From: a virus
Lineage: Duplodnaviria; Heunggongvirae; Uroviricota; Caudoviricetes
Length of the DNA: 24,712 nt
Virus record (IMG/VR): IMGVR_UViG_2778261459_000007
Location: 1 to 24,712 of that record
Direction: 5' to 3' (one strand)
In this document: piece by piece, positions 4,435-22,734 of the stretch
Position numbering within the stretch: the stretch's first letter is position 1
Layout: each line of letters begins with the position of its first letter
Notes under the pieces: model-generated
Databases searched by the model: none
Told to the model about the DNA's origin: nothing
Seen by the model: only the letters and a program-made list of their open reading frames with translations
Position numbers and translations under genes: made by a program

Positions 4435-4555
4435 TTCATTGCTCCAGACGAATGATATGATGCAATCATGATGTGATTGCATACCGAAATGGTACTATTG
4501 AGTATTTATCCAGTAGGTTACGATGCCATTCCACCCAACTGGTGAGGCATCAAGG
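4435..4555. promoter_or_regulatory. Divergent promoter/operator region between tailspike and mnt
   Basis: 121-bp gap between divergent start codons. Contains inverted repeat ATGCAATC (4460-4467) / GATTGCAT (4475-4482), the 8-bp palindrome ATCATGAT (4465-4472), and a possible plus-strand promoter TTGCAT (4477-4482) - 17 nt - GAGTAT (4500-4505). Confidence 0.35.
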
Positions 4556-4816
4556 ATGTACAGCAAATACGACGAGGCGCAGTTTCACTTGAGACTTCCG
4601 CATGAACTCCACGCGAAAATTAAACATCGCGCGAAGATGAATAACAGGTCGCTGAACTCAGAGATAATTGCAGCGATTGAAGAATCATTGGATAAACAAA
4701 GCTCTGCATCAGTTTACATTGACGATGCAGAGCGTATGGCAGAACAACAATCGGATATGGTTAAGAAAATTGTCTTTGATACGCTCAGAGATTTATATAA
4801 AAAAGACAGCAACTAA
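4556..4816 (+). CDS. mnt: Mnt-like ribbon-helix-helix repressor (Arc/MetJ fold)
   Basis: Translation ...DEAQFHLRLPHELHAKIKHRAKMNNRSLNSEIIAAIEESLDK...DAERMAEQQSDMVKKIVFDTLRDLYKK aligns along its length with P22 Mnt as I recall it (DPHFNFRMPMEVREKLKFRAEANGRSMNSELLQIVQDALSK...NDAERLADEQSELVKKMVFDTLKDLYKK). Start set at ATG 4556, preceded by AAGGA; the ORF-track start at 4523 gives an unaligned N-terminal extension. Confidence 0.85.
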   Translation: MYSKYDEAQFHLRLPHELHAKIKHRAKMNNRSLNSEIIAAIEESLDKQSSASVYIDDAERMAEQQSDMVKKIVFDTLRDLYKKDSN

Positions 4817-4833: not shown

Positions 4834-7137
4834 TTACTTCTGGTTATCATCACTGTTCATCCAGTACATGATGCCTAGCCTTGATATGGTTTTCTTATCT
4901 GATTCTGGAAGTGAGTTGTAAAACGAGCGCCAAGCAGAAGAGCGTCTTACAGTTGTATCAACGATGCTTTCTGGTGCTTGTTTTACTGCCAGCCTTGCTG
5001 CTTTCTGGAATTCTGGTGAGCTAATTAGCTTTTCTGCAGATTCAATTGATTCAGCGCCGCCCATCGCCCTGATTTTGCTGGCGACTTTTGCCCCAATTTC
5101 TGACCCAGCAACAGCACCTACTGCACTGAACGGTCCTGACACAGTTGAACCAACCGCAGTGCCAATGCGTTGGGCATGGTTAGCAACAAATTCATTTGCC
5201 GCAGTGACGCGATTAAACCGTTTGACGAACTCGTTTAGTCTTCCTGTAGTTATCTCGTAAGATTTTGCGTCTTTGATAGCCTTTGCGACCTTATATACAT
5301 CGTTCAGACCTGACATAGTCTCTTTTGGTAAATGTCGGGCAAGATTGCGCATCTGCCCGTTTGCTAACATGTTTTGATACCAGTCAGCAAACCCTGCAGG
5401 ATTAAAATCAGCGCCACGTTTTCCGTTCGAAAGCATATCCCGAAGACCTGTTCCCAGTAGCTCGGTTCTTAGCTTCCTGGACGGCGTGTTTTGCATCAAT
5501 TCACGAAATCCTTTGGCATCGCCTTTCGACATTGCCTGTAGTGCTGTAGTTGCTTTGCGAGAAACATCACCGTTCAGCGTTCTGCCAGTTAGATTAATCA
5601 TTTGCTCTTCCATGCTTTTTCGCATCTGAACAAGCCTCTGAGCAACTTCAAAATCACGTAATGCATTTGTCTCTGACAGCGCCGCCTTTTGATCATCGGC
5701 GAGCGAACCGTAAAGCCTCGATAAAGCAGCGCGATCAGCATCTTTATATGGTCCAGAATTCTTATGAAGTGCATCACCAACAAGTCGTCGTTGCTTATTG
5801 AGATTTGCATAAGTTAATGCGCCGTTCTTGCCTGGATTAACTGCCCGAAAGACTCTCTTTTCAATAGGGTCAAGGTTTTTCATCCCGCCAAGATCTTCTG
5901 CCACCTGTTTGAGCATTGACCTTGTTGATGGCGCATCAATTTTTGCACCTGCAGGCATCGCCTTTTCAACATTGCGATAAAGCTGGTCGCTTCGTTTCAT
6001 CAGCGCAGACATTCTTCCATTGACCGTATCAATAAACTTGTCGCTCATACCAAGAGCATCTTTTGCACCGGAAACGTGATCAATTATCTCCCCCGCGCCC
6101 TGTGCTAGCTGCCTGATTGCTTCATTTTCCTGCACCTGTAGAGCAGAACCCGCACGGGACTTGATTGCTTGCTCAACTGCCTTGTATTGCTCGTTCCCGG
6201 AAAAGTGTGAAGGGAGTAATGAATCAACATTAAGCCTTTCAGCAGACTCCAGAACTTCAGCCTGAGGATTGATATCTAGTTCATCAAGCGATGAAGCGAG
6301 ATTTGGCCTTTTTTGTGCTGCTACTGTGCGAACGACTTCCTCTGGGTTCCTCGTCGCAGGCGTCATTGGTACACCTTGTGCTACTCTTGCCTCTGCGGCA
6401 TGAACCGCAGGATTTGTTGCTGCAGCGGCATCACCGGAGAATTGTGATGTTTCTGTTGGCGCAGTGGTCGCTCTCTGTGCAGATGTTTTATTGCCACTAA
6501 TTATATTTGATGCACCACGAACACCACGGGTAACGCCATTTATCAGGCCATGCGTAGCAATGTTAAGTCCGGCATTAATAGCGGCATTTTCGGCAAAATC
6601 ACCCCGTTGATTCGCCGCGTCAGCGAGAGAACCAATGACCATGTTTCCAGCTACACCTGCTCCAGGAACAAGATAACCGCCTATTGACTCTCCAGCTTGC
6701 GCATACGGATCCGTTGGCCGGTTAACTGGTCTATATACTTCATCAAGAATCTTTGGTCCATCAAAACTCTGAGATGCGGCATTAATGAGACTCGCCCCCC
6801 CCTGAAGAACGTCAAAAGGAATATTTACAAATCCTCTTACCGCCTGCTCGGCAATTTGACCTACGCTTTGCCCACCTGTTAGCCATTCTCCTGCACGCTG
6901 CATAAGTGATTTGTCTTGCTGAATGGTATCAGGAGATTGCCCTACTTCCTGCTGTTCTGTCTGCATTGAAGGCAATGGATAGGCATCATAGAAAGCTTGC
7001 TTAGCCTGATCTGCATTTTCTCCGGCTTGCGGGGCCACGACTTCATTGAAGTATTGCTCCTGAGCCTGCGCTTTTTGTTCTGGTGCTAACGCCTGATACT
7101 GTGGAGAGGCGATAACATCTTTCCATGCTTTAGCCAT
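4834..7137 (-). CDS. Ejection (E) protein, P22 gp16-like
   Basis: 767-aa ORF, third of three consecutive ejection-protein genes in the conserved gp7-gp20-gp16 order. Its start overlaps the upstream stop (TAATG). Ala/Gly/Gln-rich composition typical of ejection proteins. Call rests on position and composition, not sequence recall. Confidence 0.75.
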
Positions 7138-8432
7138 TAATCACCCCATAGTGAAGAAAAGTTACTGCCAGTAGTAGATTGTTGCCCTGGCATATTCTGA
7201 ACCGGCTCCTGATAATCAAACTGTTTTTTAACAGTGCTCAACTTGCTTTCAAGCTGATTTCTAATCTTTCCGATAGAGTCACGAAAAGCCTTTTCACTCA
7301 TTTTGGGGCTTAGGGCACCAACCGCATCGGATAATTTTTTACCCTCAGCATCTGAAAGAGCACCCATCCCCTTAAGGGACTGCACCATAGGAAGGAATGT
7401 TTGAGCTTTAAAGGTGTCGAGCCTTGCTTCAAAGTTAGCCGCATCAGAGCCAGGAACTGTCGGAAACGCTGAGCGAATTCCTACTGCTTTTGAAAGGCCG
7501 GGGCTTTGCTCTATCTCGTTGAGAGAATCAAGCGCAGTGCTGAACGTATCAACTGCACCCTGAGCGGCGGCCTGCCTGTCAGCGCGGGCTATGTCAGCCT
7601 TTTGCCGAACATCTGCCTGTTTCTGTTTTAGCTCTTCAAGCTTTAACTGATTGCTTTCTCTGGCTATCTGTCTGTCCAGAGCCTTTTCTTGTAATTCTGC
7701 TCTTTGTATTTCTCGGGAAAGAGCAGCATTCTGTGCGCTGATGTTCTGTCCACGTATCTGGATGTCCTGACCTCGAGCTATTAGTGCTTCTCCGGCCTGA
7801 TTGCTGCGGATTGTCTCTGCCAGTCTGCCTCGGTCAATCTCACGACCAGCCATCTTGTCCTGAACATTGAAGTAATCAATCGGACCAAGAGCAGCCATTC
7901 CAAGGTGATCAACAAACTCACCAAATCCTGAAGGGTTCTGCTGATACATCTGAGCAACGCTGTTAGGGTCAACACCGACGCGAGTCAGTTCCTTGGCGTT
8001 GTTTTGCAGCCATGATTGCATTGCTTCTGGAGACGATGACGCAAGGCGTGCGCCAGCCGCTAAGGTGCCGATAGAATTACGCTGCTCTTCATCAATGAAT
8101 CCCATGCCTTTACGAACGGATTCAATCTGGTCTGGATATTGAGTAGCCAACTGACGCAAAGCACCGCGATCACCAGACGCATAAGCATTAGCGTATGCCT
8201 GCTGAAATTCTTTCTGCCGCTGAGCCTGCTTTTCCTGCTGAAACACCCCAGCAATACCTGAAAGGCCTTGCAAAGCAGTCAGCCCAACATTGTTAGCGCC
8301 TGAACGCTCAATATCATTGTTCTGCCTGATAAGCTGAAGCGTATTGCTGATGTCATTTACGCTCGGAGCGTTTGAGTTGACGCCGCCGATACCAGCCAAC
8401 AATCCGCCATTTGATCCTTGCCAAGTAGCCAT
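7137..8432 (-). CDS. Ejection (E) protein, P22 gp20-like
   Basis: 431-aa ORF between the gp7-like and gp16-like genes; Q/A-rich central coiled-coil-like region. Positional and compositional match to P22 gp20 / Sf6 gp12. Confidence 0.75.
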
Positions 8433-8441
8433 GATTACCCC

Positions 8442-9134
8442 TTAAAACAACGAGCCAAGCAATCCGATACCAGCACCAATGCCAGCGCCCCAAGGTGTTG
8501 ATGTTCCCAAAAGGCTGGCAAGACCTGCACCGGCAATCGCACCAGACGTTCCGCCACTAATTGCTGTCTGAAGACTTGATGGTTTGTTGGCATTAGCAGC
8601 GGCAAGAGCTGCGCTTTGCTGTGCAATGCTGCTCATGTTGTTGGCGTACGTCTGCCCGGCGTTTGCCTGACCTTGCAGAGCACCAAGCCCAACGTTTGCC
8701 AGATTGTTGTAATTGCTCATCTGGTTTGACAACCAAGACTGACCGAGAGTCGGCGCGATCGTAGCCAGTTGATTGCTTGTGGCTGTCGAACCAAGCCCTC
8801 CCGTAGCCTCCGCAGCAGCAAGACTCTGGTAACGCGCCTGACCTGCAAGGTCTTTATACTGCTGAGAGTTGTAATACTGATTAAGTGCCTGCCCCTGACC
8901 TTCTAAACTGGAAAGGTTCTGAAGCTGGTTAACATACTGCTCCGCAAGAGGCGTGAACGGAGCAAGGTTTTTCATGATCGTCTGCCACTGCTGATTTTGC
9001 AGGTCTGCTGCATACTTCTGAGCTTCTGCGGCATACTTTGCGCTTTTATCAGAGCTACCACCTTTCCCGCCTTTTTCAGGGCACCAAGGTTCCTCGCCGC
9101 GCAGTTTTCTGCCCAGCTTAAATGCATATAACAT
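8442..9134 (-). CDS. Ejection (E) protein, P22 gp7-like
   Basis: 230-aa ORF. N-terminus MLYAFKLGRKLRGEEP..EKGGKGGSSDKSAKYAAEAQKYAADLQNQQ and the Gly/Ala-rich C-terminus match P22 gp7 (229 aa) as recalled. Confidence 0.85.
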   Translation of the reverse strand: MLYAFKLGRKLRGEEPWCPEKGGKGGSSDKSAKYAAEAQKYAADLQNQQWQTIMKNLAPFTPLAEQYVNQLQNLSSLEGQGQALNQYYNSQQYKDLAGQARYQSLAAAEATGGLGSTATSNQLATIAPTLGQSWLSNQMSNYNNLANVGLGALQGQANAGQTYANNMSSIAQQSAALAAANANKPSSLQTAISGGTSGAIAGAGLASLLGTSTPWGAGIGAGIGLLGSLF

Positions 9135-9136
9135 GG

Positions 9137-9592
9137 CTATCTCCCGTGATTCAGGAAGTCGATTAGTTCTTCGCGTGTGGCGCTGTAAAACGTCACGTCA
9201 TCCACGCCTTTGAAGTATTTTTTGATGGTTCCTACACGATTAAGGCCAATCATTGCGCAGTACATCTGACCGTGGCGGAATTTGCGTGCAGCGAACGATG
9301 TGACGCACTGAACGGTGGTGTTAGTCAGAATGTATCGCCAGAACGCCAGCCCGATTTCCTTGCTGAATCCGCGAATCTCTGGCAGGTACATGGCGTGGCA
9401 ATCGAATGTCAGCGGCTGAATCTCCTGATAGTAAACAATGCCGCCGAACTGCCCGTGCACGTTCACCTCAAAGTAACGGCAATCAGGTTTGTAGTCGTAT
9501 CCATCACCGTTGTTGCTCCCGGCAATAATGTCAGGGTGATTTCCGACTGCTTCGATCAGGTCAATGTTTCGCGTTGGTTTGAACTGAATCAT
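9137..9592 (-). CDS. P22 gp14-like head/DNA-stabilisation (ejection-associated) protein
   Basis: 151-aa ORF between the tail needle and gp7-like genes, the position of gp14 in P22/Sf6. Call is mainly by synteny. Confidence 0.7.
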   Translation of the reverse strand: MIQFKPTRNIDLIEAVGNHPDIIAGSNNGDGYDYKPDCRYFEVNVHGQFGGIVYYQEIQPLTFDCHAMYLPEIRGFSKEIGLAFWRYILTNTTVQCVTSFAARKFRHGQMYCAMIGLNRVGTIKKYFKGVDDVTFYSATREELIDFLNHGR

Positions 9593-10440
9593 TACTGCTC
9601 CGCGATTATCTTGATGGTTGTGGCAGTAAACGCCGCACCATTTGATTGAATGGTTAACGTGCTGCCATTTGTGGCAAGAAAGCCGTCTTTATCCACGCTG
9701 AAGAACGTAGCTAACAGGATGTTATCGGTTGTTGTCGCCGCATTACGACTGCTGACCAACGTGTCAGGAACAGAGCCGGAAAAGGTTAGCTGCATTGACC
9801 TGTTGGCGGTTCCGCTGGGCCACGTCCCGACAATCGACAGCTTGAAGAACAAGGTTTTGTTCTCGTTGAACACAACCATCTTGTTGTTAACGGTGTCGAA
9901 GAATGGTGCCAACGTTCCGGATGACGGCGTGAGCGTTTTCAGCAGGCTAACAAGGTTGGTCGGCGCTGTCGGGATGGTTACAGATACGCCAGAGTAAACA
10001 ACCTCTGACTTTTTGCGAGTAGTGGCATACTCCAGAGCATCAATGCGCGTTTCATGGTCTGAAAGCGTGTTTTGAATGGCGATAACTTCATCAGTCAGAT
10101 AATCAATATCGTTTTCTGCTGTCGTTAATCGGGAATCAAGGCCGACTATCGCCGATTCTGCGTTAGTGATCCTTGTTTCGTGGTCCTGAATCTTCGCTTC
10201 AGCTGATGCCAGTCGAATTTCGTGATCGACCAGAATCACATCCTGCTCATCGTTCCTGACTTGTGCGTCATAAGCGCCCTGCCCTGCTTCGTTGGCCTTG
10301 TTCGCCACGTTACCAACATCAGTACCCTGTGCAATAACGTACAGCAGATATGACTGCGAGAAGATATTGCGTGGAAGGACTGATGTATCGAGCCGCGTAG
10401 CCTGGATGATTACCGGCACATTGAGATTCGAATCCGCCAT
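9592..10440 (-). CDS. Tail needle (plug) protein, P22 gp26 / Sf6 gp9-like, with C-terminal knob extension
   Basis: N-terminus [64 protein letters not shown] is the conserved gp26 portal-plug domain, followed by heptad-like coiled coil. At 282 aa it is longer than P22 gp26 (233 aa), with a beta-rich C-terminal region of the Sf6-type knob kind. Confidence 0.9.
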
Positions 10441-11858
10441 TACTCAATCCTTATCTGGCAGCCTGACAGAGTGACAGGTGACTTCGTGATAACGCGCAAT
10501 TTGAAACCGACATTTTTCCTGATGCGCCCTACTCGCTTCCACAAAACGCGTTTGTCGTAAACGAACGGTTCATTCTGCTCAATCATCTGCTCACGCCCGT
10601 AATTGATGCCGTCAGTGGTTGCAGAGAGGAACAGGCGGTCAGCGTACTGCGCAACGCCAGTTGAAGATTCAACCTCAAGGTCGAACACCCGGGCGTTATC
10701 CGCTTTGAACAACGGAGTAAACAGCAGGTGTTCCTGCTGCTTGTCGTACTGGCTGCTGATATCGAACTGCAATTTCCCGGTCACGGATTCCAGCTTATCG
10801 CCGCACGTTATCTGATTGCCTTCGTAAATGAAGTCGATAGCGCGGTACACATCGTCATACAAGCCAGTTTTCAACACACACCATTGCGGACCATTGGCGC
10901 TTGAAGATGCGTCGTACACGAGAACATGGCGCGGAAGGTGGATAATCAGCAACTCATGAGCATCAAATCGCAGAGACTCCATCACACCCTCAGCCAGTTC
11001 ATCAGCAGTGTAGGAGCGGAGAATTTTCTCAATGCTCGCGCTGGCGATTGGTGATACCTGACCGGAGCCGATGATGTATACAGACGGCGCACCTGTTGCC
11101 GGATTGCTGATGAACGCATAGGAATCAGCGAATGGAGTTTTACAGTAGGTTCCGGCAATACCTTTCTGCACCATCAGCGATGGCTGTGCAACATACAAAG
11201 CGGCACCAACGGTGGTTGCGCCAGTAAGGGAGAAATATTCAATAGTCGATGAACCAAAGCAGACGATGAAGTCTCGCCATGTGCCGATGCCGATGATGCC
11301 GTCAGGCTGCGATTCTGCGCGATATTGTGCGCTGTATCGGTCAGGATGTGATTCGTCTTCAAGGTCAGTGATAAACCATGAATCAGTGCCGTCTTTTGAC
11401 CACGCATAACGCCCACGTAAGCGCGTAATGTCGCGTACTGAGCCTAACTCATACTGCGTGAATCCGCTGTCTGTAGGCCAGTTTGAGACGGTTTTAACCG
11501 TGCCATCATAGCGATACTCGACCAGTTGACCATTAACGCCTACCGCCTGTGATGTCCGACCATGCGCCATTGATACGCGACCACTTCCGGCAACATCACC
11601 GACTTCACTTTCGCCTTTGTACAGCTTGCCACCACACACGCGATAAACAGCATTCTGCGCCATGTTGTACTCGACACCGCGCGATACACCGTTCACATCA
11701 GAACGTTTGGCAATGCCCGGGAATGAGCGAAGATATCCGCTGCTGTTCAGGATTTCTTTGGGTGTAGCCAGCATATTCACTGGCAGATAGTCGATATAGT
11801 CGGCGTTTCGAAAGTCTTTGCCGACACCTTTCATAAGCGGAAGTTGCTGAATCGGCAT
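10440..11858 (-). CDS. Tail hub / tail accessory factor, P22 gp10-like
   Basis: 472-aa [52 protein letters not shown]... is near-identical in motif and length to P22 gp10 as recalled. Confidence 0.9.
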
Positions 11859-11867
11859 TTATTCACC

Positions 11868-12329
11868 TCACGTACTCGGCTCATCTTTCTCGATGTAAAA
11901 CCGATTCCACGTAAACGCGCTTTTGTTACCACTACCGCGAGGCATGTCATTTCGCCGCTCAAGTGGTGGTATTTTGGTTAAAGCGATACAGATTGTCTGA
12001 TATGCACTGTCAGCAGCGGTAAGGAGAGCGTCTGACGGCTGAATGACGTTATCCATGCACACTTGCACAGCGAGTTTCAAAGCGACGCCATCATTTGCCC
12101 ATGCAGGGATACCTGAATCATCGTCCGGTAACGGCATGATGCCGTTTTCTGTATCAGCAAACTGATACCCAAGCTCGATACCTTTAGCCTGCCATGCTGC
12201 CATCATGTCTTCGAGGTCATTAATGGCATCTTCAATTGCCTGAGGGTCAGCATCTGTCAACGTGGCATTGGAATACAGCCCAGCTTTTCGTAAAGCCTTT
12301 AGAACGAGATCACCCTTCGTTTTCGCCAT
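11868..12329 (-). CDS. Head-to-tail adaptor / tail accessory factor, P22 gp4-like
   Basis: 153-aa ORF. MAKTKGDLVLKALRKAGLYSNATLTDADPQAIEDAINDLEDMMAAW matches the P22 gp4 N-terminus (…KTKGDLV..ALRK…ATLTD.EPQ…DLE.MMA.W). Sits between the coat and gp10 genes. Confidence 0.85.
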   Translation of the reverse strand: MAKTKGDLVLKALRKAGLYSNATLTDADPQAIEDAINDLEDMMAAWQAKGIELGYQFADTENGIMPLPDDDSGIPAWANDGVALKLAVQVCMDNVIQPSDALLTAADSAYQTICIALTKIPPLERRNDMPRGSGNKSAFTWNRFYIEKDEPST

Positions 12330-12498
12330 CTTCTTCCGCCTTAGCCACTTTTTGCTTCGTTGCGGTTTCTTCAGGAGTTTTTACCCAGCCTTTTTTCAGG
12401 TGAGATTTAACTTCTTCGTCATCAACAATGATGTAATCGACAGCAAACTGACCACAGGTGATCATGTTGCCAGGCTTATAGAGCATTGTTCGTGCCAT
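12310..12498 (-). CDS. Small hypothetical protein between coat and gp4-like genes (62 aa)
   Basis: ORF with start ATG 12498 preceded by GGGAG at good spacing, directly after the coat terminator. Acidic C-terminus (AKAEEDGENEG). Overlaps the gp4-like start by 20 nt. The ORF-track version (from 12537) would start inside the terminator hairpin. No homolog recognised. Confidence 0.5.
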   Translation of the reverse strand: MARTMLYKPGNMITCGQFAVDYIIVDDEEVKSHLKKGWVKTPEETATKQKVAKAEEDGENEG

Positions 12499-12510
12499 TG
12501 TCTTCTCCCA

Positions 12511-12532
12511 ATAAAAATGGGGCCGAAGCCCC
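12511..12532 (-). terminator. Intrinsic terminator immediately downstream of the coat gene
   Basis: Minus-strand RNA GGGGC-UUCG-GCCCC (perfect 5-bp GC stem, UUCG tetraloop) followed by AUUUUUAUU. Lies 8 nt after the coat stop codon. Confidence 0.7.
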
Positions 12533-12539
12533 ACCAAAA

Positions 12540-13799
12540 TTACTGCCCGGCAATAACGATGCCCGTATATTCAGGAACAAGTACAGAGCAACCGTACAGA
12601 GTGGTGAAACGAGCAGTGGTTACGCCTTTGATGTGGTCGAAGGCGTAAGACATGATCAGCGTAGCGCCCTGCTCGGTGGTTGCTGTCATTACCTGTGGAC
12701 CCTGACCAGTCGGGAACGCCAGTTTGCCGTACATCAGTTCAACAGAACCATCAGCCCAGAACAGGTTAGCCGGTGCGGCATTTTTGTTGAGAATGGTGAT
12801 TGCTGCAGTTTCTGCCGGCTTGGCATCGACGTTTGCATATGGACGGCTCGCAACATCGGCATTTCCAACAGGGAGAATCTTTGGAGAGATTGTTACGGTG
12901 GTTCCTGCTGTGTCTACTGCCAGAACGCGGAATACCTGCGGCTGCCCGGTGGTATCTTTGGTGATCTGGTGTACGGAATTCACACCTGCGATGGTAAACG
13001 CATCGCCAACCTGCAAGCCTTTAGCAGATACCGTAATGGTCCCCTGTCGGTTATCAACAGGCATGCCATTTGAATCTTTCGCTTCAACCTTGTGTTCAGG
13101 TTGATTTGATACTGTCAAGGTTTCAGTGCTTCCTGCCGGTAATCGACCGGAAATATCGGTCTTGTAGCTATCGAAGGACGCAACCGGAGGGATTTGCGCT
13201 TTTTCGTATGCTGTCAGGGTTGCGCCCTGAGCATAGGCACGGTGACCAAGCTCGCCAGCAAGGTCTTTGTAGTTGAAGGGGTTCCAGAAAGAGCGACGGT
13301 TGATACCCTGAGGTACACCAATCGCCGTCATGGTGGCATCAATACCTGCCGCACAGTTCCACAAATCACGGCCCTGTGAACCTGTGGTTGAGTCAGCCAT
13401 CGTGATCACGTTAGTAGCACGCTGCGTAACCATGGAAATCAGGTCAGAGTCAATCTGTGCAGCAAGGCGCATACCTGCGGCGCGACCAGCTTCAGTTTTA
13501 TGTTCCGGGTCACGCATTTCACGCGCATCCAGAGTGTACAGAATGTTTTTCGGCTCCTTGAACACAGAAGGAACAAGGCGCTGAACCAGTGCTGTTGGCG
13601 TTTTGCCGCTGAGGTCTAGGCCTTCCTCAATGTTCATGTGGTAATGCTGCGGACGATACAGAACATCACCTGCTCGCTGCATTGCTGTATCACCGGGACG
13701 GAATTTTTTAGCGTTACGGGAAACTACGCAGGCGGCCTCAAAGCCTTCAACGTAGTTTTCGAACATGATTTCAAGGTCTTTTGCTAATTGGTTAGCCAT
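12540..13799 (-). CDS. Major capsid (coat) protein, P22 gp5 / Sf6 gp5-like (HK97 fold with insertion domain)
   Basis: 419-aa ORF directly downstream of the scaffold gene and followed by a strong terminator. Size and position match the P22 (430 aa) / Sf6 coat protein. Confidence 0.9.
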   Translation of the reverse strand: MANQLAKDLEIMFENYVEGFEAACVVSRNAKKFRPGDTAMQRAGDVLYRPQHYHMNIEEGLDLSGKTPTALVQRLVPSVFKEPKNILYTLDAREMRDPEHKTEAGRAAGMRLAAQIDSDLISMVTQRATNVITMADSTTGSQGRDLWNCAAGIDATMTAIGVPQGINRRSFWNPFNYKDLAGELGHRAYAQGATLTAYEKAQIPPVASFDSYKTDISGRLPAGSTETLTVSNQPEHKVEAKDSNGMPVDNRQGTITVSAKGLQVGDAFTIAGVNSVHQITKDTTGQPQVFRVLAVDTAGTTVTISPKILPVGNADVASRPYANVDAKPAETAAITILNKNAAPANLFWADGSVELMYGKLAFPTGQGPQVMTATTEQGATLIMSYAFDHIKGVTTARFTTLYGCSVLVPEYTGIVIAGQ

Positions 13800-13817: not shown

Positions 13818-14711
13818 TTATTTTTTTGCCTTTTTAGCGGCGAAATACGGCGTCCAGTCACCAGTTTCCAGCGCCTTGGCTTTCAATTTGACGAGGTTGT
13901 TGATTACTGCGCCGTTGCTCCCCTTAACTGTCGGGGTTGTGGCTGCCGTGGTTTTTGCTTTTGGCATGATTCTGGCCTTCGATTCGATACGTTCCAGCAG
14001 ACGACCAATTGCTACGGGGTTGGTAGCTTCTGCCAGTTGCTTGCGCAGTTCAGCGTTGCGACCGAGTGCCAGAACAACGATTTCCGGCTTCTCTGACTCA
14101 AACAGGATCGCGTTTTGTGTCTCGATGGGGATTTCCTCGAGTACGGCCTGCTCAGCTTCCTGATAGCCAGGAACTTTGAGAGCCTTAACACGTTGCTGAT
14201 ATTTGGATAATCGCTCTTGATAGGCAGCCTGAAGCTCCTGCTCCTTCTGCTTGCGAGCCATCTCCTGTTGCTGGTACTTGCCGTTATCCTCTGCCCACTT
14301 AGCCATGCGTTGCTGGTAGATTTCTTCATCGAAACCGATGTCCTCATCATCCAGTTTTGGCATTCGCGGTGGTTGAGTGATTACCGGCTGCTGCTCGACG
14401 GGTTTCTGAGACTGACGCATCAGCTCCTTCAGCTCACGGTCTTTCTCTTTAATCGTCTTGCGCAGGTGTTTTACCAGTCCATGCTCTGCGCCATCTTCGC
14501 TGGTTGGCGAATCCAGCTTTTCGTCACCAAAGTAGAATTCCTGTTCTGATTCGTCGTCATCAGTTTCAGTAGCTTCCTCTGCATCATTGCCGGAGGACTC
14601 ACTGCCATCTTCTGTTTCGACTTCTTCAGCCAGTTCGACATCATCAGGAATCTGCTCTGACGCGTCGGTTTCGATTTCAACTTCTGGTGTGTTTTCTGCC
14701 ATCTGGTCCAT
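13818..14711 (-). CDS. Scaffolding protein, P22 gp8-like
   Basis: 297-aa ORF between portal and coat. Extremely acidic N-terminus, Q/E/K-rich helical middle, basic C-terminal tail (…GDWTPYFAAKKAKK) typical of the coat-binding helix-turn-helix of P22-like scaffolds. Confidence 0.85.
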   Translation of the reverse strand: MDQMAENTPEVEIETDASEQIPDDVELAEEVETEDGSESSGNDAEEATETDDDESEQEFYFGDEKLDSPTSEDGAEHGLVKHLRKTIKEKDRELKELMRQSQKPVEQQPVITQPPRMPKLDDEDIGFDEEIYQQRMAKWAEDNGKYQQQEMARKQKEQELQAAYQERLSKYQQRVKALKVPGYQEAEQAVLEEIPIETQNAILFESEKPEIVVLALGRNAELRKQLAEATNPVAIGRLLERIESKARIMPKAKTTAATTPTVKGSNGAVINNLVKLKAKALETGDWTPYFAAKKAKK

Positions 14712-14801: not shown

Positions 14802-17000
14802 TTACTGCTGTGGTTGTTGCTGAGTTGATTTTTGCAGGATGCTGCTGATGTCCATGCGCTGCGCATGGCCCTGTGCCTGACTTTTCAGGACAAGCTCTGC
14901 ATCAGCACGGGCATTATCTCCTTGCTGTTGCTGGAACTGTCCGAGCAGTTTCAGCGCCTCACGGATATCAGATTTTTGCTGGCTATCGGCAGATGCGAGG
15001 ATTTTCACAACATTTGCCGCAGCAACCTGAGCATCCGTCTGTGCCTGGAATGCTTTAACCTGAATGGCTGCTTGTTCGTTCTGCGCTTTCTGCAATTCAG
15101 CCTGACCAGCAAGAAGCTGACCTTGCGCAGCAACCATAGCCGGATCTGGCTGACTGGCCTGTTGTTGTTTCGCCTGTTCAACCATCTGCTGTTCTTCAGG
15201 CGTTCTCGGCTTGATAACGCCAGACAGAAGCAACTGATTGCGGTTGTATTCTTTAAGGTCGTCCATCCCTTCGCCGTCCATATTGTCGAGAATCATCGAC
15301 GATACAAGGTCGTGCTTCGGCGTTCCTGGTGGGATAAGTGCCAGCATGGAAAGTAACGACTTAACCGTTGCGTCACGGCGAGTAGCGAACGACTGACCGA
15401 CATCGACAGTCACTTCATAGTTACCCTGCGAAAGGTCGTTAAGCGCGATAACCTGCCCTGTCTGACGGTCAACCACTTCACCAGTCATCAGCGCCACGTC
15501 ATCGCTGCCGTCCTCATTAACGATACGCATAGGCGTATCACTGCCATAGACCTCACGCGCCATAGAAAGCCACACAACGCCAGCGCGACGCATGGATTTA
15601 GCCATGTTGTCCATGTAGATATAGGACTGCGTGTCCATCCTGTTAAAGATGCTATCAACGGTATCGGTAGCGACGTTGCTCGGCATGTTCTCAAGCTGCG
15701 ACGCACCTGTAATTTGCTGAATAGCCGTTCCGGTGTACTGCAATAGTCCGGCAAGAGCAGGAGGCATTTGTGTTGGGGGTGTCCAGCCAGCAACCTGAGC
15801 TTCTGAAATGACTGTTCCGTTTTTGTCCTTCTTGCTGGTCATAGGAAGAACTGCAGGTCTTTTCTTATTCCTCTCTGCCCAGTGATTCATTAATGGGCCG
15901 GGAATGAAATCAACATCCACGATAGGAATACCATCACCGCCAGCCTGAGTAGCGTTATCTGCAATCATGGAAACCATCAGGTTCTCAAGACGCTGAGCAT
16001 CCATCGCTTTTGCTGCGTGGCCTTCGATTCGCTCCTGATTATCAACAAATGAGCGACGCCCATATACCGGGATGAGAGGAATATGTTCGCCCGGAATACG
16101 CTTCGGTTCTTCCAGCCATTCAGCGCCAGACAGAAGACCGCAATAAACTCTGCGTTTCTTCACTGTCCGCTCACCAATCAGTTCGAATGCGCCATCGGTC
16201 AGCTCGTCGACAATATCTTTGATTTGCTCTTCATCATAGATTGCCGTTTCTCCGCTAACAGGGTTGCGCCATGCCGTGAGCTTCACCTTCTCTATGCGAA
16301 CTTCGTAGTAGCGACCAACATAGATAGCATCAGGGGTTGACCAGTCATATTGAGTGCCAGTGTCATCACGAGAAAGGCTTGCCGCGATGGAATCAGGGTA
16401 TTCAGCCTCGAACGCTTTAGGCGTCATGGAGAACATTTCCATAGCCCACATAGCATCAGAGCGGTCATATTGCTTGCTGTCCTGATCGAAGAAGACGCAT
16501 GTGGCCGGGTCGTAAACAGGAAGAAGGCTGATGCGTCGCTGCTCGTTACTTGGGTCCATTTCATCTTCGTAATCGGCACACATGCGGAAACAACCGAATC
16601 CGCCCGTTACAGCATCATCAAATGCGTTATCACACGCTTCGCCACCGGATGTTTCCTGATAGTCAGCGCGGAATTTGCCGTTCATCTTTTCGGCTAACGC
16701 TTCCGATGCCTTATCGTCCTTCGGCCTGAATTTAACGCTGATGCGATTCTGTCGATACTCGCCAATGATGCGATCACATTCACGGGCAATCTTATTCAGT
16801 TCAAAGCGCGGGTAATGCTCAAACCTTCCTTCATCAAATGAGTAACCAGCGTTTGTGCTGCCTTCCCACTGTGCGCCGGACACCCGGACGAAACGTTGAG
16901 CCTCAATAATCTGCTCACGCATATCCTGCGTTGCTGACCAGGCATTATCAAAGTTGCACAGCACCTTGCGATGCCAGTCAGTCATCTTTTTTTCTGCCAT
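14802..17000 (-). CDS. Portal protein, P22 gp1-like
   Basis: 732-aa ORF immediately downstream of large terminase. C-terminal region (…PEEQQMVEQAKQQQASQPDPAMVAAQGQLLAGQAELQKAQNEQ…RMDISSILQ…) matches the long Q-rich helical barrel of P22 portal as recalled. Confidence 0.92.
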   Translation of the reverse strand: MAEKKMTDWHRKVLCNFDNAWSATQDMREQIIEAQRFVRVSGAQWEGSTNAGYSFDEGRFEHYPRFELNKIARECDRIIGEYRQNRISVKFRPKDDKASEALAEKMNGKFRADYQETSGGEACDNAFDDAVTGGFGCFRMCADYEDEMDPSNEQRRISLLPVYDPATCVFFDQDSKQYDRSDAMWAMEMFSMTPKAFEAEYPDSIAASLSRDDTGTQYDWSTPDAIYVGRYYEVRIEKVKLTAWRNPVSGETAIYDEEQIKDIVDELTDGAFELIGERTVKKRRVYCGLLSGAEWLEEPKRIPGEHIPLIPVYGRRSFVDNQERIEGHAAKAMDAQRLENLMVSMIADNATQAGGDGIPIVDVDFIPGPLMNHWAERNKKRPAVLPMTSKKDKNGTVISEAQVAGWTPPTQMPPALAGLLQYTGTAIQQITGASQLENMPSNVATDTVDSIFNRMDTQSYIYMDNMAKSMRRAGVVWLSMAREVYGSDTPMRIVNEDGSDDVALMTGEVVDRQTGQVIALNDLSQGNYEVTVDVGQSFATRRDATVKSLLSMLALIPPGTPKHDLVSSMILDNMDGEGMDDLKEYNRNQLLLSGVIKPRTPEEQQMVEQAKQQQASQPDPAMVAAQGQLLAGQAELQKAQNEQAAIQVKAFQAQTDAQVAAANVVKILASADSQQKSDIREALKLLGQFQQQQGDNARADAELVLKSQAQGHAQRMDISSILQKSTQQQPQQ

Positions 17001-17001
17001 A

Positions 17002-18417
17002 TCAACCTACACCACAAGGAATTGAGTAACTGGAATAGTCGGGTTGCGCAGCCGACTCCGGGCAATGCATACACATCATCAGCGCATCAGCCAGGTTAGG
17101 AGATGGAATACCGAGCTTCTGCTTCATTTCGACCTTAGTCATAAGCTCCAGCTTCCCGTTGTTATTGAATTTGCGCTGAATCTGCGTCAGTTCTGCAAAC
17201 AGCTTCTCCAGCATATTCTCGCCTATCGCTTCTTTGTCGAAACTCAGCATGTCGTCGGGGTCTGCATACTCACCGTGGACAACCGCCCGATATGTCAGAT
17301 ACAGCCTGTCAGCCAGCGCGTAATAGAATTGCGCTCGCTTATTGCGGAACACATCGCCAATAGTACGAACATTGTCGCCCTGTACGACTTCATCAGACCA
17401 TGCTCCGGCCTGATAAGGCGCATCTTCATCGAATGGCGATTCGCTGCCCTTGAACATCGTGGCGGTGATTTTCTTACCGGAGAATGCTTCCGTTGTCTGT
17501 CTGCGTAGCCCGGCACCAACGCCATCGCCATCCCACAGGTAGTGGTCAGCGCCGTCTTCAATCGCCAGCGAAGTAGCCCAGTCAGCCCCCTCGTTGATGT
17601 CCATCAGCAGGCCTTCGGCAATGCGTTTAACTACCGAACCGTGGCGCGATGCATAACCTTTAGCATCCGGTCCTGTATCTGACGGGTCATGCGCAGAAAC
17701 AACCGCACCTTTCGCTTTCCACCCGAGTTTCGTGTGCGCATCGGTTGCAGCTTCAAGCCATTCACGTTTGATGATTGCCATATCACTTGCGCTCACTGGC
17801 TCACCCAGCCAGATGTGACGATACAGTGTCGGATTTCTGCGTTTGCACTCTTCCATCTCCAGACGGAGAACTTCAGGAAAGTGCGGGTTGTCGGTGTAGT
17901 TCACCGTCAGCAGACAAATATCATCTGGAGGATTTACAACGAATCGCTGATAGGTATCGTCGAGGATGTTCTTCGGGTTAAAGCTCACCCATATTTCAGA
18001 GAACGGCTTACGGATGGTTGGTATCAGGATATCCCATGATTCCTTCGTTACCGCTTCCGCTTCTTCCACCCAGCAGATATCAATACCTTCTAGCGATTTA
18101 ATCTTCGTCGGGTTGTTTTTGATGCCGTAGAACATGAACTCAGCATTCGTTCCGAGATGACGAATCATGGAACGCTGAATTTCAAACTCAGCCGAATACC
18201 CTTCACGCTCGATGGTATCTTCAAGCAACCGGATTACCGAATCGCTGATACTGTTTTGCAGTTCACGAGCGCAAAGAATACGCACAGGCTGCCGACGTGC
18301 CGCTTCAACAAGCAGCCTAGCAATTGCCCATGACTTACCGCTACCTCGACCGCCTTTGGCGACTTTGTAGCGATGCGCCTCAATGAACGGTTCAAAGATA
18401 GGATTAATCGAGGTCAT
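17002..18417 (-). CDS. Terminase large subunit (ATPase/nuclease), Sf6 gp2 / P22 gp2-like
   Basis: 471-aa ORF. Walker A motif VAKGGRGSGKSWA near the N-terminus and acidic nuclease region in the C-terminal half. Start overlaps the small terminase stop (ATGA). N-terminal sequence matches Sf6 large terminase as I recall it. Confidence 0.95.
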   Translation of the reverse strand: MTSINPIFEPFIEAHRYKVAKGGRGSGKSWAIARLLVEAARRQPVRILCARELQNSISDSVIRLLEDTIEREGYSAEFEIQRSMIRHLGTNAEFMFYGIKNNPTKIKSLEGIDICWVEEAEAVTKESWDILIPTIRKPFSEIWVSFNPKNILDDTYQRFVVNPPDDICLLTVNYTDNPHFPEVLRLEMEECKRRNPTLYRHIWLGEPVSASDMAIIKREWLEAATDAHTKLGWKAKGAVVSAHDPSDTGPDAKGYASRHGSVVKRIAEGLLMDINEGADWATSLAIEDGADHYLWDGDGVGAGLRRQTTEAFSGKKITATMFKGSESPFDEDAPYQAGAWSDEVVQGDNVRTIGDVFRNKRAQFYYALADRLYLTYRAVVHGEYADPDDMLSFDKEAIGENMLEKLFAELTQIQRKFNNNGKLELMTKVEMKQKLGIPSPNLADALMMCMHCPESAAQPDYSSYSIPCGVG

Positions 18418-18836
18418 TTTCCGAATAGAGTGCTCATCGGTGATGTTTCAATCTGGATTGCGCCGCCGTCCTTACCGACAAGCTCGTTAGTTACCTTGTC
18501 GCCATACTTACGGGGATTCATTCGGGCCAACGCCCATTTGCGTGTATCAACGCGAAGTCTTGCCTTTGCCACTTCAGCAGCATCTGGAATCGCATTGTCA
18601 GCAATTTCGAATATCTCTTCGAAAATAGAATCAGCTCGTGCCTCAGTTGCCTTCGCGTACTTGTCGCGAAAATCCTCATGCTTTGCCAACCAGCGGAAAA
18701 CAGTGGACTTATCCGGCATACCAGGACGCTTACATACTTTCAGCAAACTCTCGCCAGAAGAAAGCAACGAGCAGATATCGTCAGCCACCTCCGGCATATA
18801 ATCAGAGGGGCGACCAGCTTTTGGTTCAGTCGCCAT
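18414..18836 (-). CDS. Terminase small subunit, Sf6 gp1-like
   Basis: 140-aa product MATEPKAGRPSDYMPEVADDICSLLSSGESLLKVCKRPGMPDKSTVFRWL… with an N-terminal HTH-like DNA-binding domain; matches Sf6 gp1 as recalled. The ORF-track start at 18842 (MNM…) is equally possible. Confidence 0.9.
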   Translation of the reverse strand: MATEPKAGRPSDYMPEVADDICSLLSSGESLLKVCKRPGMPDKSTVFRWLAKHEDFRDKYAKATEARADSIFEEIFEIADNAIPDAAEVAKARLRVDTRKWALARMNPRKYGDKVTNELVGKDGGAIQIETSPMSTLFGK

Positions 18837-19040
18837 ATTCATCTCACTTAATTTTTATTTCAGGTTGAGGACTCTTTCGCGCCTTCAATCAGTGACTGCT
18901 TCAGCAATTCGAGTGTGCCAATCGCCTCGCATAAACTGATTTCACCATCGTAATCATGAATGACGCTTTCCATCCGCTCGTATAGCTCTTGAGTAATTGG
19001 GAATTTCTTCTCCTTACCAAAATTGATTACGCGGCTCACA

Positions 19041-19635: not shown

Positions 19636-20154
19636 TCACTTTGGCAGTCCGGGGATCGATATTTGCGCCTGCTGCTCAAGCCTTTCGATTCTTGCTATGA
19701 GTTGCGGTTTTTTGATCCTGCCCCAGCGGTTCAGCAAGCGTCCTGACATACTGGCAACATCCTTTTCCTTCATGAACTCCAGCATTAACTCGTTGTGCTC
19801 TCTTTGGTATGAGTGAGCCATCTCCATCAGCCTGTCACGCATCCAATTAAATGCTTTGATAAACGCCTCTTTGATGGCGGCAGCTTTTTTGCCGGTAAAC
19901 GACATGATGATGTACATCGCGCCGTCTTTGGAAATTTCATATTCAACATACTGATTACCCTTGTGTTCATAGGTAACCCGCGAAAAGTTGCTGGTTAGAA
20001 ATTCATCCGAACAGTCTAGCTTTTCGATTTTCTGAATGATGTGGTGATGCTGCTTGTCGAAGTAAGCTGCTACCTTGCGGGAGGTTGTGATCACGCGATC
20101 ACCAGAAACAACCACCATGTCCCGGAAATCGAGATTAGCCAATTGATGATTCAT
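19636..20154 (-). CDS. rha: Rha-family phage regulatory protein
   Basis: 172-aa ORF. N-terminal VVVSGDRVITTSRKVAAYFDKQHHHIIQKIEKL fits the Phage_pRha domain signature. Located between the lysis cassette and terminase, where P22-like phages carry a rha-type gene. Confidence 0.7.
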   Translation of the reverse strand: MNHQLANLDFRDMVVVSGDRVITTSRKVAAYFDKQHHHIIQKIEKLDCSDEFLTSNFSRVTYEHKGNQYVEYEISKDGAMYIIMSFTGKKAAAIKEAFIKAFNWMRDRLMEMAHSYQREHNELMLEFMKEKDVASMSGRLLNRWGRIKKPQLIARIERLEQQAQISIPGLPK

Positions 20155-20302
20155 AGCGTCTTTACCTTTTAGAAAGATGAGCCTGTTCGCACAGAAAAGC
20201 CGTCCCCGAGATGGTCGCCACCATATACGGCAATTCTCAGGCTCAGCTTTCTGAAAGACTCGGGATTGTTACGCGCTGCGATGCGCGGTTTACTGCAGAT
20301 GT

Positions 20303-20326
20303 AAAAAAGCCCCGCAAATGCGAGGC
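20303..20326 (-). terminator. Intrinsic terminator between Rz and rha
   Basis: Minus-strand RNA GCCUCGC-AUUU-GCGGGGC (7-bp stem with one G-U pair) followed by UUUUUU. Confidence 0.6.
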
Positions 20327-22245: not shown

Positions 22246-22734
22246 CTACGCTACATGTTTAATTTTCTCTACACGTTTCCGGTTTTTAAACGCACTATCC
22301 AGAACCGGGTAAATCATAAACAACGAGGCATTGAGGATTTCGTCAACTTCCCGACGACAGGTTGCGAGCGATGGTTTTTGAATGCGCCCGCCGCCCCGGC
22401 ATAACATCTTGCGAGGTCTTGCGACGCGATGATAGTAAGATGCAATGGCGTGCTTGGAAGAACCGTGGGCGTAGTAGCTGAGGAGGATGCCAAAGGCTTT
22501 CTTGTCAATGTACATGACGGAATCGACGACCTGAGAAATCAACATTCCATCATCATCATTGCACATTGGCCTTGTCATAACTCTTCCCGGCTCTACGCTC
22601 TCCATGAACTTCGCTATTACGCTGCTCATGCGCTTTTCCAGACGACCTGAATAAACCCATGCGCCCCACAGTTCAAGCCAGCCATTCAGCCACTCATGCT
22701 GTTCTTTGGTGAGGTTTAGTTCTCTTATGCCCAC
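22246..22734 (-). CDS. Q: Late-gene antitermination protein Q (non-lambda type; length and sequence suggest the phage 21 Q family)
   Basis: 162-aa ORF immediately downstream of the nin region and upstream of pR'/tR' and the lysis genes. Not lambda Q (207 aa). Cys-containing motif (CRGGGR…C) consistent with a Q-family zinc-binding element. Family assignment is from memory and position. Confidence 0.75.

Follow-up and report, generated by a model that had tools for sequence, protein, structure and literature searches.

Known counterparts and layout of the locus

Phage P22 is a leading model of virus assembly, and a conserved small gene sits within its assembly cluster beside an internal putative terminator. 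Across P22, epsilon34 (gene 6) and phage L/ST64T (orf186), the stop codon of the coat gene is followed, in the same order, by a GGGGC-tetraloop-GCCCC hairpin with a T-run, a ribosome-binding site and a small ORF that overlaps the start of gene 4. The same architecture is displayed by Sf6 (gene 6), HK620 (hkbT) and APSE-1 (an unannotated ORF), whose ORFs of 61-63 aa overlap the gp4 homolog. Both parts have been recorded by earlier annotators: the P22-pbi record (AF527608) features an 'RNA stem-loop' after gene 5 together with orf69 at this place, and that of Sf6 (AF547987) has the hairpin as 't coat', a likely transcription terminator, together with gene 6. The phage L paper discusses the intra-operon terminator and proposes partial termination or the stopping of non-antiterminated transcription (PMC8022706), and a passage of PMC2629481, citing Eppler 1991, gives P22 orf69 as non-essential. 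All of these precede the novelty implied by the initial annotation of the DNA studied here: the hairpin and the small gene are a known, annotated and conserved feature of P22-like phages, with reference genomes of the group marking them and possible roles already in print, and their value as a discovery is small. Our survey makes three modest additions. Hairpin and small gene stay paired even between P22-type phages that are very far apart, one of them apparently non-lambdoid; the pair is placed where the shell-gene block ends and does not mark the coat gene as such; and the small gene belongs to a large protein family whose members are encoded upstream of gp4 in almost all of the contexts that we inspected.

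Leaky terminators follow major capsid genes elsewhere, namely T-phi after gene 10 of T7 and the terminator after gene VIII of f1/M13. As in the present locus, the hairpin there comes directly after the structural gene needed in greatest abundance, and read-through feeds the genes downstream; however, T7 uses a phage polymerase and f1/M13 transcription is non-antiterminated, whereas the present operon is transcribed by the host enzyme, for which Q modification is expected. The small gene may be compared, by position only, with that of lambda gpFI, located between E and FII: each comes after the major capsid gene and ahead of the first head-completion/adaptor gene, and gpFI is a small non-structural protein that is dispensable or leaky. 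Inefficient terminators are a known means by which phages balance expression, with T7 cited as a case (PMC9163698).

The window (the whole stretch of DNA analysed, 24,712 nt) comes from a P22-type prophage of the CUS-3-like kind and covers its late region, whose genes lie on the minus strand (Table 1). The region is 98-99.5% identical to CUS-3, Sf101, Kapi1, JEP4 and others, and is contained in 428 of 5426 complete E. coli genomes. In CUS-3 (ECRS218_0017) and Sf101 (gp06), the small protein and the hairpin are 98-100% identical to those of the window and occupy the same place, i.e., there is essentially no difference, and the hairpin is unannotated in both records. The coat gene product is recovered by the Pfam model PF11651 P22_CoatProtein (E 1.6e-75) and by phrog_283, major head protein (E 1e-120), and the gp4-like product by PF11650 P22_Tail-4 (E 7.8e-41) and phrog_637 (E 5e-70). 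The ribosome-binding site of gp4 falls within the small ORF. Downstream of the hairpin, on the same strand, are the genes for gp4, gp10, gp26, the ejection proteins and the tailspike; the portal and terminase genes, which code for low-copy products, are upstream of it. A promoter scan found no promoter-like site between the hairpin and gp4 and nothing convincing after the hairpin (7 promoter-like sites vs 10.1 expected). Read-through of the hairpin is therefore required for the essential virion genes beyond it, and the initial annotation had rightly placed the hairpin inside an operon that must continue.

Table 1. Features of the coat-gp4 boundary and the late antiterminator gene, in window coordinates
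Feature	Positions	Strand	Details
Coat (major capsid) gene	12540..13799	(-)	419 aa; stop TAA 12542-12540
Terminator-type hairpin and T-rich run	12510..12535	(-)	Terminator scan, fold and comparison of relatives
Shine-Dalgarno GGGAG of the small ORF	12505..12509	(-)	Read from the sequence; 6 nt ahead of the ATG
Small ORF	12310..12498	(-)	62 aa; ATG 12498; stop 12312-12310; phrog_1175 member
Overlap of small ORF 3' end and gp4-like start	12310..12329	(-)	20 nt; from the ORF coordinates
gp4-like head-tail adaptor (Ad3) gene	11868..12329	(-)	153 aa
Q-like late antiterminator gene	22246..22734	(-)	phrog_943 anti-termination protein Q-like, E 4.9e-90

The hairpin and its recurrence across P22-like loci

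The core of the hairpin comprises GGGGC (12532-12528), the loop UUCG (12527-12524) and GCCCC (12523-12519), with seven bases between the coat stop codon and the core stem. The full stem, GGUGGGGC paired with GCCCCAUU, has 8 pairs (5 of them G-C) and spans 12535-12516, and the T-rich run TTTTTATT (12517-12510) comes directly after it. An intrinsic terminator is recognised by a GC-rich stem of roughly 5-10 pairs closed by a short loop, with a U-run directly behind it; by its sequence, the hairpin displays every one of these marks and is a strong candidate for such an element, as the initial annotation had proposed. Its calculated energy is -12.6 to -14.7 kcal/mol (-12.6 with a stricter scanner), and it is the top match in a terminator scan of 8-18 kb. 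On the sense strand of the whole window, the stricter scanner recovers two clean intergenic matches at or below -12.5 kcal/mol, the post-coat hairpin among them, against 0.2 matches expected per window from dinucleotide shuffles (n=40) and about 4e-4 expected in the 45-nt interval after the coat gene. The post-coat hairpin thus exceeds chance expectation. The second clean terminator in the same operon lies at 20327-20308, after the lysis genes. In the centroid fold, the post-coat hairpin alone is present; the fold z-score of the whole segment is an unremarkable -1.56, since the flanking sequence folds too. An Rfam search of 12200-12700 with E-values up to 1 returned nothing, and we found no transcript-end data or time-course transcriptomics in the literature on P22, Sf6 and CUS-3.

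We sampled 17 divergent P22-like loci from E. coli, Salmonella, Hamiltonella, Vibrio, Aeromonas, Ralstonia and metagenomes, and in 15 of these a GC-rich tetraloop hairpin stands just upstream of the small ORF that precedes gp4. The succession of hairpin, ribosome-binding site (an equivalent of GGAG, GAGG or AGGA in the relatives) and small ORF was read directly in P22, epsilon34, Sf6, APSE-1, RSK1, a Vibrio prophage, the loci L091, L094 and L096, Louie, sortkaff, Kc237, Aeromonas 4_4512, C130_2 and prophages of the L010 type. Departures are seen in phiSG1, L093 and L098: all three have a hairpin behind the (presumed) coat gene, yet phiSG1 is devoid of the small ORF, and other ORFs intervene in L093 and L098. 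In 102 kb of sequence from P22-like loci, the 45-nt intervals upstream of the small ORF make up 0.7% of the total and contain 11 of the 26 strict terminator matches (binomial P 1.5e-17).

The stem sequences vary by lineage (GGGGC, GGGAGC, GGGCGC, GGCCGCC, GGCCCCC and GGGGTGGG), the loop is of 4 nt in every folded hairpin, with UUCG the commonest and the stable tetraloops UUCG and GAAA found in most lineages, and nearly all lineages retain a T-run behind the stem. Pairs 1-5 are paired in 14 of 14 sequences, a tally that shows the variety of stems and is not an independent test of covariation, since each hairpin was located by its own fold; it was made by hand, anchored on the loop, because MAFFT misaligned three of the 14 sequences. 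RSK1 and L091 have an additional gene (ORF5) behind the coat gene, and there the hairpin comes after ORF5, just ahead of the small ORF, marking the end of the module. C130_2, a phage with terminal repeats and with no annotated integrase, repressor or Q, is apparently non-temperate and non-lambdoid; it retains both the hairpin and the small ORF, and the element is therefore not tied to Q control. The retained T-run, the placement in RSK1 and L091 and the case of C130_2 favour a terminator over a plain hairpin. Taken together, the locus is a conserved boundary between procapsid and head-completion genes in the P22-type late operon, made up of a terminator-type hairpin and a gene of the orf69 family with a strong ribosome-binding site of its own.

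The small gene and the phrog_1175 family

The small ORF codes for a protein of 7.0 kDa (MARTMLYKPG...GENEG) with a pI of 5.0 and 12 D+E vs 9 K+R residues, so that its description as acidic in the initial annotation was roughly right. The GGGAG-led 62-aa ORF described there, with its overlap of the gp4-like start, is likewise present. However, the upstream limit given there, 12537, is the TTG start of an extended ORF of 75 aa that begins inside the hairpin and is devoid of a ribosome-binding site; the homologs begin at the position equivalent to the ATG, and the real start is at 12498. We also rejected a fusion of the small ORF with gp4 by programmed frameshifting, there being no slippery heptamer in the overlap.

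Residues 2-56 of the protein match positions 1-55 of the 72-position phrog_1175 profile (E 9.2e-29), the same profile recovers P22 orf69 (E 4.5e-31) and RSK1 ORF6 (E 6.4e-12), and P22 orf69, located at the same place, is directly retrieved with BLASTP (E 4e-7). An annotated CDS for the small ORF exists in CUS-3, Sf101 and other records. Hence, whereas all the sequence features described at this locus by the initial annotation are present on the minus strand, its statements that the ORF has no recognised homolog and that P22 has no gene here do not hold. The N-terminus of epsilon34 gp6 is also related (BLASTP E 3e-8), and in epsilon34 and L the shared N-terminal domain is combined with an inserted WDGH domain (PF25311), which the window protein does not have. 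Identity between the window protein and the P22/epsilon34 group is just 26-43% over a core of 40 residues, and P22 differs further in having a UGCG loop and a longer, basic protein tail.

The phrog_1175 profile is matched by 655 clusters at 50% identity. The family is characterised by the motif hLYKxG ... hhVD ... GW..xP in the first 45 residues, which is present in the window protein; across 30 diverse members G10, G37 and W38 are invariant and Y7, D26 and P42 near-invariant. The C-terminal tails are of low complexity and very variable length, with the window protein among the shortest of the listed members and its tail net acidic. An AlphaFold2 model (mean pLDDT 75.7) displays a β-hairpin, two successive helices and a disordered tail, with a confident core. 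Scans against Pfam and NCBIfam gave no match for the 62-aa protein, nor did the PADLOC defence models at E-values up to 0.1, and querying the PDB sequences with the family profile brought up just two de novo TIM-barrel designs, neither with a significant E-value; the phrog_1175 family has no recognisable fold. We found no support for the RefSeq label 'virion structural protein' on Sf101 gp06, including in the Sf101 paper. The Tai defence paper and ORF69 of Stx phage Sp5 are unrelated to the small ORF.

The small protein of Sf6, HK620 and APSE-1 belongs to another PHROG, phrog_3251. The predicted pattern in this group is similar to that of the window protein (two strands, a helix and a G-aromatic motif); the window protein has no profile match to phrog_3251, and hhalign aligns the two over the expected 34 columns with E 0.004 and a probability of only 8%, for which reason we claim a positional analogue and not homology.

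The conservation among relatives that the initial annotation had looked to extends well beyond Sf6 and CUS-3: phages of Ralstonia, Vibrio and Aeromonas carry homologs of the small ORF in the corresponding place. The small ORF lies between genes for a P22-type coat and a P22_Tail-4 (gp4) protein, on the same strand, in the window, RSK1 and Firinga, and a homolog precedes gp4 in five further phages. Among seven metagenomic or genomic loci, a Tail-4 gene is downstream of the small ORF in six, immediately adjacent in five of those, with position scored from gp4 only in L094, L095 and L098, where the coat gene is beyond the reach of the contig; in the seventh (L096), the small ORF follows the coat gene and a Tail-4 gene was not detected. 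The overlap with gp4 is 17 nt in P22 and epsilon34, 26 nt in Sf6 and 1 nt in sortkaff and Kc237, and in several phages a gap or other genes separate the two. The reading frame, whose conservation had likewise been singled out for checking, is intact in 80 of 80 close IMG/VR loci, and its variants include an excess of synonymous changes (20 synonymous vs 23 non-synonymous, with 20.6% synonymous expected; P 1e-4). The profile match, conservation, synonymous excess, model core and synteny establish the small ORF as a real gene.

Proposed roles of the hairpin and the small gene

From comparative sequence evidence, we consider the best overall explanation, at a probability of about 60%, to be a boundary in which the hairpin would act as a leaky terminator and exonuclease barrier and the small gene as an accessory gene coupled to gp4. 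Most likely, the hairpin is a leaky intrinsic terminator and/or a 3'-end stabiliser between the procapsid genes and the low-copy head-completion genes. RNA polymerase that is without Q modification, or imperfectly modified, would halt at the hairpin part of the time, and transcripts ended or trimmed there would retain a protected 3' end, because of which the mRNA of scaffold and coat would outlast and outnumber that of gp4, gp10, gp26 and the ejection proteins. Read-through, aided by Q in the lambdoid members, would provide the essential downstream genes, and the small ORF would reload ribosomes past the hairpin and be translationally coupled to gp4. Its conserved 45-residue domain most likely makes an accessory factor for the head-completion step, non-structural and dispensable.

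Polymerase modified by the Q proteins of lambda, 82 and 21 ignores intrinsic terminators. Given this resistance and the Q-like gene of the window, it may be that hardly any genuine late transcript of this phage ends at the hairpin, and the suggestion of the initial annotation that partial termination sets the ratio of coat to minor proteins is therefore weakened as a sole mechanism here. Moreover, portal and terminase are low-copy products encoded upstream of the hairpin, and partition of transcripts alone therefore cannot set the stoichiometry.

Somewhat unlikely, in our estimate, is that the hairpin is an mRNA decay barrier only, with no termination on Q-modified late transcripts: after endonucleolytic cleavage downstream, 3'-5' exonucleases would stall at cUUCGg and the scaffold-coat mRNA would be selectively stabilised. 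The upstream Q-like antiterminator gene with the established terminator resistance of Q-modified polymerase, the very stable tetraloops of most lineages and the neutral term chosen by the P22-pbi annotators are all consistent with such a barrier. Nevertheless, a block to exonucleases has no need of the U-run, which is kept in nearly all lineages, and the element also persists in C130_2 without an annotated Q. The hairpin could alternatively be an insulator against spurious or prophage-state transcription that comes from other than the late promoter and is not Q-modified, preventing lysogens from expressing the tail and ejection genes and the conversion genes further downstream, and playing no role in late-gene ratios; this is one of the possibilities raised for phage L (PMC8022706). 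The terminator after the lysis genes would fit a set of several internal insulators, and the region is mostly prophage-borne in the 428 E. coli genomes. We regard a purely insulating role as quite unlikely, in that it leaves unexplained the specific position of the hairpin at the end of the shell module and directly before the small ORF (15 of 17 lineages), as well as its retention in the apparently non-temperate C130_2.

Regarding the small gene, it is possible, if unlikely, that the phrog_1175 protein specifically serves assembly of the gp4 adaptor: it might keep gp4 monomeric, deliver it to the portal after packaging or act as a gpFI-like packaging helper, with the hairpin, ribosome-binding site and overlap forming one unit that meters both proteins. 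If so, P22-type head completion would have an overlooked and nearly universal component in this family. At the other extreme, the ORF might be a translated leader only, its product being irrelevant and its translation serving to unfold the mRNA and bring ribosomes to the gp4 start. Most lineages have the small-ORF stop within or right beside the start of gp4 (overlaps from 26 nt in Sf6, 20 nt here and 17 nt in P22 to 1 nt in sortkaff), the C-terminal tails differ greatly in length and are of low complexity, and the P22 copy is dispensable according to the passage in PMC2629481 that cites Eppler 1991; all three point in this direction. We nonetheless judge it very improbable, as the 45-residue N-terminal domain stays conserved throughout the 655 clusters, whether in E. 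coli or as far off as Ralstonia, Vibrio and Aeromonas, its modelled core is confident, several phages have a gap or other genes before gp4, and epsilon34 and L fuse this N-terminal domain to a WDGH domain.

The post-coat hairpin in its prophage setting

The window is the late region of a P22-like (Lederbergvirus) prophage, whose gene order was read from high to low coordinates by PHROG and Pfam scans, with the relevant genes all on the minus strand (see the table). The 371 bases surrounding the hairpin behind the coat gene and the small ORF that follows it are 98-99.5% identical to CUS-3, Sf101, Kapi1, JEP4, E212 and others, and are present in 428 of 5426 complete E. coli genomes. The observation is real but ordinary, a rediscovery of what P22-like phages already have annotated, namely the "t coat" stem-loop and the orf69/gene-6 family. 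The acetyltransferase-like gene, the Arc/Mnt-like repressor and the integrase together make up the group's customary "ant moron" and conversion region.

Features of the prophage late region, from high to low coordinates
Feature	Position	Strand	Basis or remark
NinG	23577-24188	-	PHROG/Pfam scans
NinI-like phosphatase	22725-23471	-	PHROG/Pfam scans
Q-like antiterminator	22246-22734	-	PHROG/Pfam scans
Holin	21395-21718	-	PHROG/Pfam scans
Endolysin	20935-21411	-	PHROG/Pfam scans
Rz	20501-20938	-	PHROG/Pfam scans
Rha	19636-20154	-	PHROG/Pfam scans
Small terminase	18414-18842	-	PHROG/Pfam scans
Large terminase	17002-18417	-	PHROG/Pfam scans
Portal	14802-17000	-	PHROG/Pfam scans
Scaffold	13818-14711	-	PHROG/Pfam scans
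Coat	12540-13799	-	PHROG/Pfam scans; hairpin and small ORF next
Coat stop TAA	12542-12540	-	Sequence reading; 7 bases then separate it from the core stem
Core stem GGGGC / GCCCC	12532-12528 / 12523-12519	-	Extendable to 8 pairs, 12535-12516
Loop UUCG	12527-12524	-	Sequence reading
T-rich run TTTTTATT	12517-12510	-	Sequence reading
Ribosome-binding GGGAG	12509-12505	-	6 bases before ATG
Small ORF, 62 codons	ATG 12498, end 12310	-	Ends 20 nt inside the gp4-like gene
gp4-like adaptor	11868-12329	-	PHROG/Pfam scans
gp10-like	10440-11858	-	PHROG/Pfam scans
Needle	9592-10440	-	PHROG/Pfam scans
gp14-like	9137-9592	-	PHROG/Pfam scans
Three ejection proteins	8442-9134, 7137-8432, 4834-7137	-	PHROG/Pfam scans
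Arc/Mnt-like repressor gene	4523-4816	+	Between tailspike and last ejection gene
Tailspike	2395-4482	-	PHROG/Pfam scans
O-acetyltransferase (O-antigen acetyltransferase-like)	1285-2334	-	Adjoins tailspike
Integrase	1-1158	+	At window edge

By its sequence, the hairpin is a canonical intrinsic terminator, and the minus-strand reading, scans and shuffles uphold the strong UUCG-tetraloop terminator of the initial annotation once strand and coordinates are slightly corrected. It ranks first in a terminator scan of 8-18 kb. A stricter scanner, for which a T-run must follow one hairpin with both ends closed and an energy of -9 kcal/mol or better, returned five sense-strand matches over the entire window; two of them are clean and intergenic, namely the post-coat hairpin (-12.6 kcal/mol) and one after Rz (20327-20308). 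Forty dinucleotide-preserving shuffles gave 1.1 matches at the -9 cutoff and 0.2 at a cutoff of -12.5, with about 4e-4 expected within the post-coat 45-nt interval. The fold of the whole 71-nt segment is ordinary (z -1.56), and its centroid structure is the post-coat hairpin alone. The match after Rz is a second clean intrinsic terminator in the late operon (minus strand, AGCCUCGCAUUUGCGGGGCU then UUUUU, -13.6 kcal/mol), in a ~345-nt non-coding gap (20155-20500) before the Rha-like gene.

Positional conservation of the hairpin and the small ORF

We read the same junction in 17 divergent P22-type loci, comprising 11 phage genomes (P22, epsilon34, Sf6, APSE-1, phiSG1, RSK1, Louie, sortkaff, Kc237, Aeromonas 4_4512 and C130_2) and six other loci, namely a Vibrio prophage, E. 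coli prophages of the L010 type and the metagenomic contigs L091, L093, L094, L096 and L098. In 15 of these, a small ORF with its own ribosome-binding site is preceded, within ~80 nt, by a GC-rich hairpin, which is itself nearly always followed by a T-run (weak in Aeromonas). The loop is of 4 nt in every folded hairpin (UUCG in 8/17), and the stem varies by lineage (GGGGC, GGGAGC, GGGCGC, GGCCGCC, GGCCCCC, GGGGTGGG). Pairs 1-5 are paired in 14/14 hairpins. Since every hairpin was found through its own fold, this tally documents diversity and does not amount to a formal test of covariation. The real test is positional enrichment: of 26 strict-scanner matches in 102 kb of P22-type loci, 11 fall within 45 nt before the small ORF, in intervals making up 0.7% of the sequence (binomial P 1.5e-17), showing that the element is under positional selection.

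The hairpin follows the coat gene (a presumed one in L098, where the ORF is cut off) with other small genes intervening in L093 and L098, and phiSG1 has the hairpin behind coat and lacks the small ORF. In RSK1 and L091, it comes after an extra gene of 229-235 aa beyond coat and not after coat itself; therefore, its place is where the shell-gene block ends, immediately before the small ORF. Across seven metagenomic and genomic loci, the P22 coat gene precedes the small-ORF gene wherever the contig extends that far, and in six the latter lies upstream of the P22_Tail-4 (gp4) gene, directly adjacent in five; in the seventh (L096) the family gene follows coat and no Tail-4 gene was detected. Five extra phages display the same placement before gp4. 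What our survey adds is the wide conservation of hairpin plus small gene as one unit closing the shell-gene block.

Conservation also holds in Sf6 and CUS-3, two of the relatives named initially. The Sf6 record has a [quoted passage not shown], and its gene 6 comes next and runs into the gp4 homolog. The small ORF is annotated as ECRS218_0017 in CUS-3 and as gp06 in Sf101. The P22-pbi record likewise places an "RNA stem-loop" 6 bases past gene 5, with orf69 next.

Possible roles of the hairpin

We infer that the hairpin may act as a leaky terminator and 3'-end protector, which would favor scaffold and coat mRNA over that of the low-copy head-completion and ejection genes. The U-run is retained, which argues for real termination over a plain exonuclease block. 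C130_2, a phage that has terminal repeats and in which neither integrase, repressor nor Q is annotated, keeps both hairpin and small ORF; hence, the pair is not tied to lambdoid Q control, and a purely Q-related role is disfavored. By what is established for lambdoid Q proteins, a Q-modified polymerase should nevertheless ignore such an element, and this is the main counter-argument to leaky termination. Since the window prophage itself encodes a Q-like protein, the hairpin acting as a stabilizer or as an insulator are serious rivals in this phage.

Partial termination, as proposed in the initial annotation, is a reasonable hypothesis and is already in print as a suggestion: a passage in the phage L genome paper (PMC8022706) holds that the terminator could lower downstream mRNA in this way or, alternatively, stop transcription begun without antitermination. 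A promoter scan found none for the essential genes downstream of the hairpin, and a literature search recovered no 3'-end mapping or time-course transcriptomics for the P22-like group.

The small gene and its protein family

The GGGAG-led, 62-aa ORF with its 20-nt gp4 overlap is present as first described, and "acidic" fits it roughly (pI 5.0, with a net acidic tail). While this sequence observation held, two comparative statements did not: the ORF was said to have no recognised homolog and matches phrog_1175 (E 9e-29), and P22, said to have no gene here, annotates orf69 at the same position, overlapping gene 4 by 17 nt. P22 orf69 belongs to the same PHROG (E 4.5e-31) and aligns over a 42-residue core (BLASTP E 4e-7). 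Gene 6 of epsilon34 (orf186 of L and ST64T) shares this domain at its N-terminus (43% identity, E 3e-8) and has an inserted WDGH domain (PF25311, E 1.7e-40; L009 1648-2208), an architecture shared by the family protein P0218. The Sf6/APSE-1 protein at this place belongs to another PHROG and aligns in the expected register without significance.

The ORF is intact in 80/80 close IMG/VR loci, with 20 synonymous versus 23 non-synonymous single-base variants (random expectation 20.6% synonymous; P 1e-4). The gene is conserved and looks translated, and translational coupling to gp4 is probable. Built from 30 diverse members, a profile matched 655 clusters (50% identity) at E up to 1e-3; nearly all of the best 150 matches are of 50-130 residues with the domain N-terminal, and the window protein ranks with the shortest of those listed. 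The core carries the motif hLYKxG ... hhVD ... GW..xP, with G10, G37 and W38 invariant and Y7, D26 and P42 nearly so across the 30 members. The low-complexity tail is highly variable in length, often Pro/Glu-rich and then Lys/Arg-rich. The AlphaFold2 model averages pLDDT 75.7 and is confident in its core, where two of the first four 10-residue blocks reach 90-91; residues 3-26 form a long beta-hairpin, 27-35 and 42-55 are two helices, and the end is disordered. This is a large family without known fold or function. We tentatively suggest a role in head completion, at low confidence because gene position and coupling are all that point to it; a statement in Villafane et al. (PMC2629481), citing Eppler et al. 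1991, has the P22 orf69 copy as non-essential.

Annotations of these genes vary. In hundreds of E. coli genomes, the NCBI pipeline labels the small protein "hypothetical protein". The identical 62-aa Sf101 gp06 (L001 1623-1811) is a "virion structural protein" in RefSeq (NC_027398) and a "hypothetical protein" in its GenBank original and all other records; neither the Sf101 paper nor the PDB supports the former label. Two CDSs are probable mis-annotations: APSE-1 P26 (L007 1569-1898), antisense to an overlapping, unannotated 63-aa ORF of the Sf6 gene 6 family (phrog_3251, E 7e-30), and Louie CDS0007 (L099 2190-2327), which spans the hairpin, with an unannotated family-type ORF (MTHMIFRHG...) beginning at ~2272. 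In the family protein P0259 of L096 (4001-4675, 224 aa), the N-terminal domain apparently occurs twice (ILYRPGKGSVVNG...AGW; IRLYKKSVGQ...DGW); its gene sits behind a P22-type coat gene, and no P22_Tail-4 domain is detectable in the next genes.

Mosaic joints occur at and inside the feature in the IMG/VR loci L010, L038 and L087 (corresponding to window 12440-12560), where a different coat 3' end is joined at the hairpin. The small ORF of L010 and L038 differs only in codons 2-20 (MSQIMLYKPGSMITCGPHSL...), plus Q49H in L038, with the remainder and gp4 almost unchanged. The identical 14-mer GGGGCTTCGGCCCC is also found in epsilon34, C130_2 and L098, whose gp4 proteins, where measured, are 31-41% identical to that of the window.
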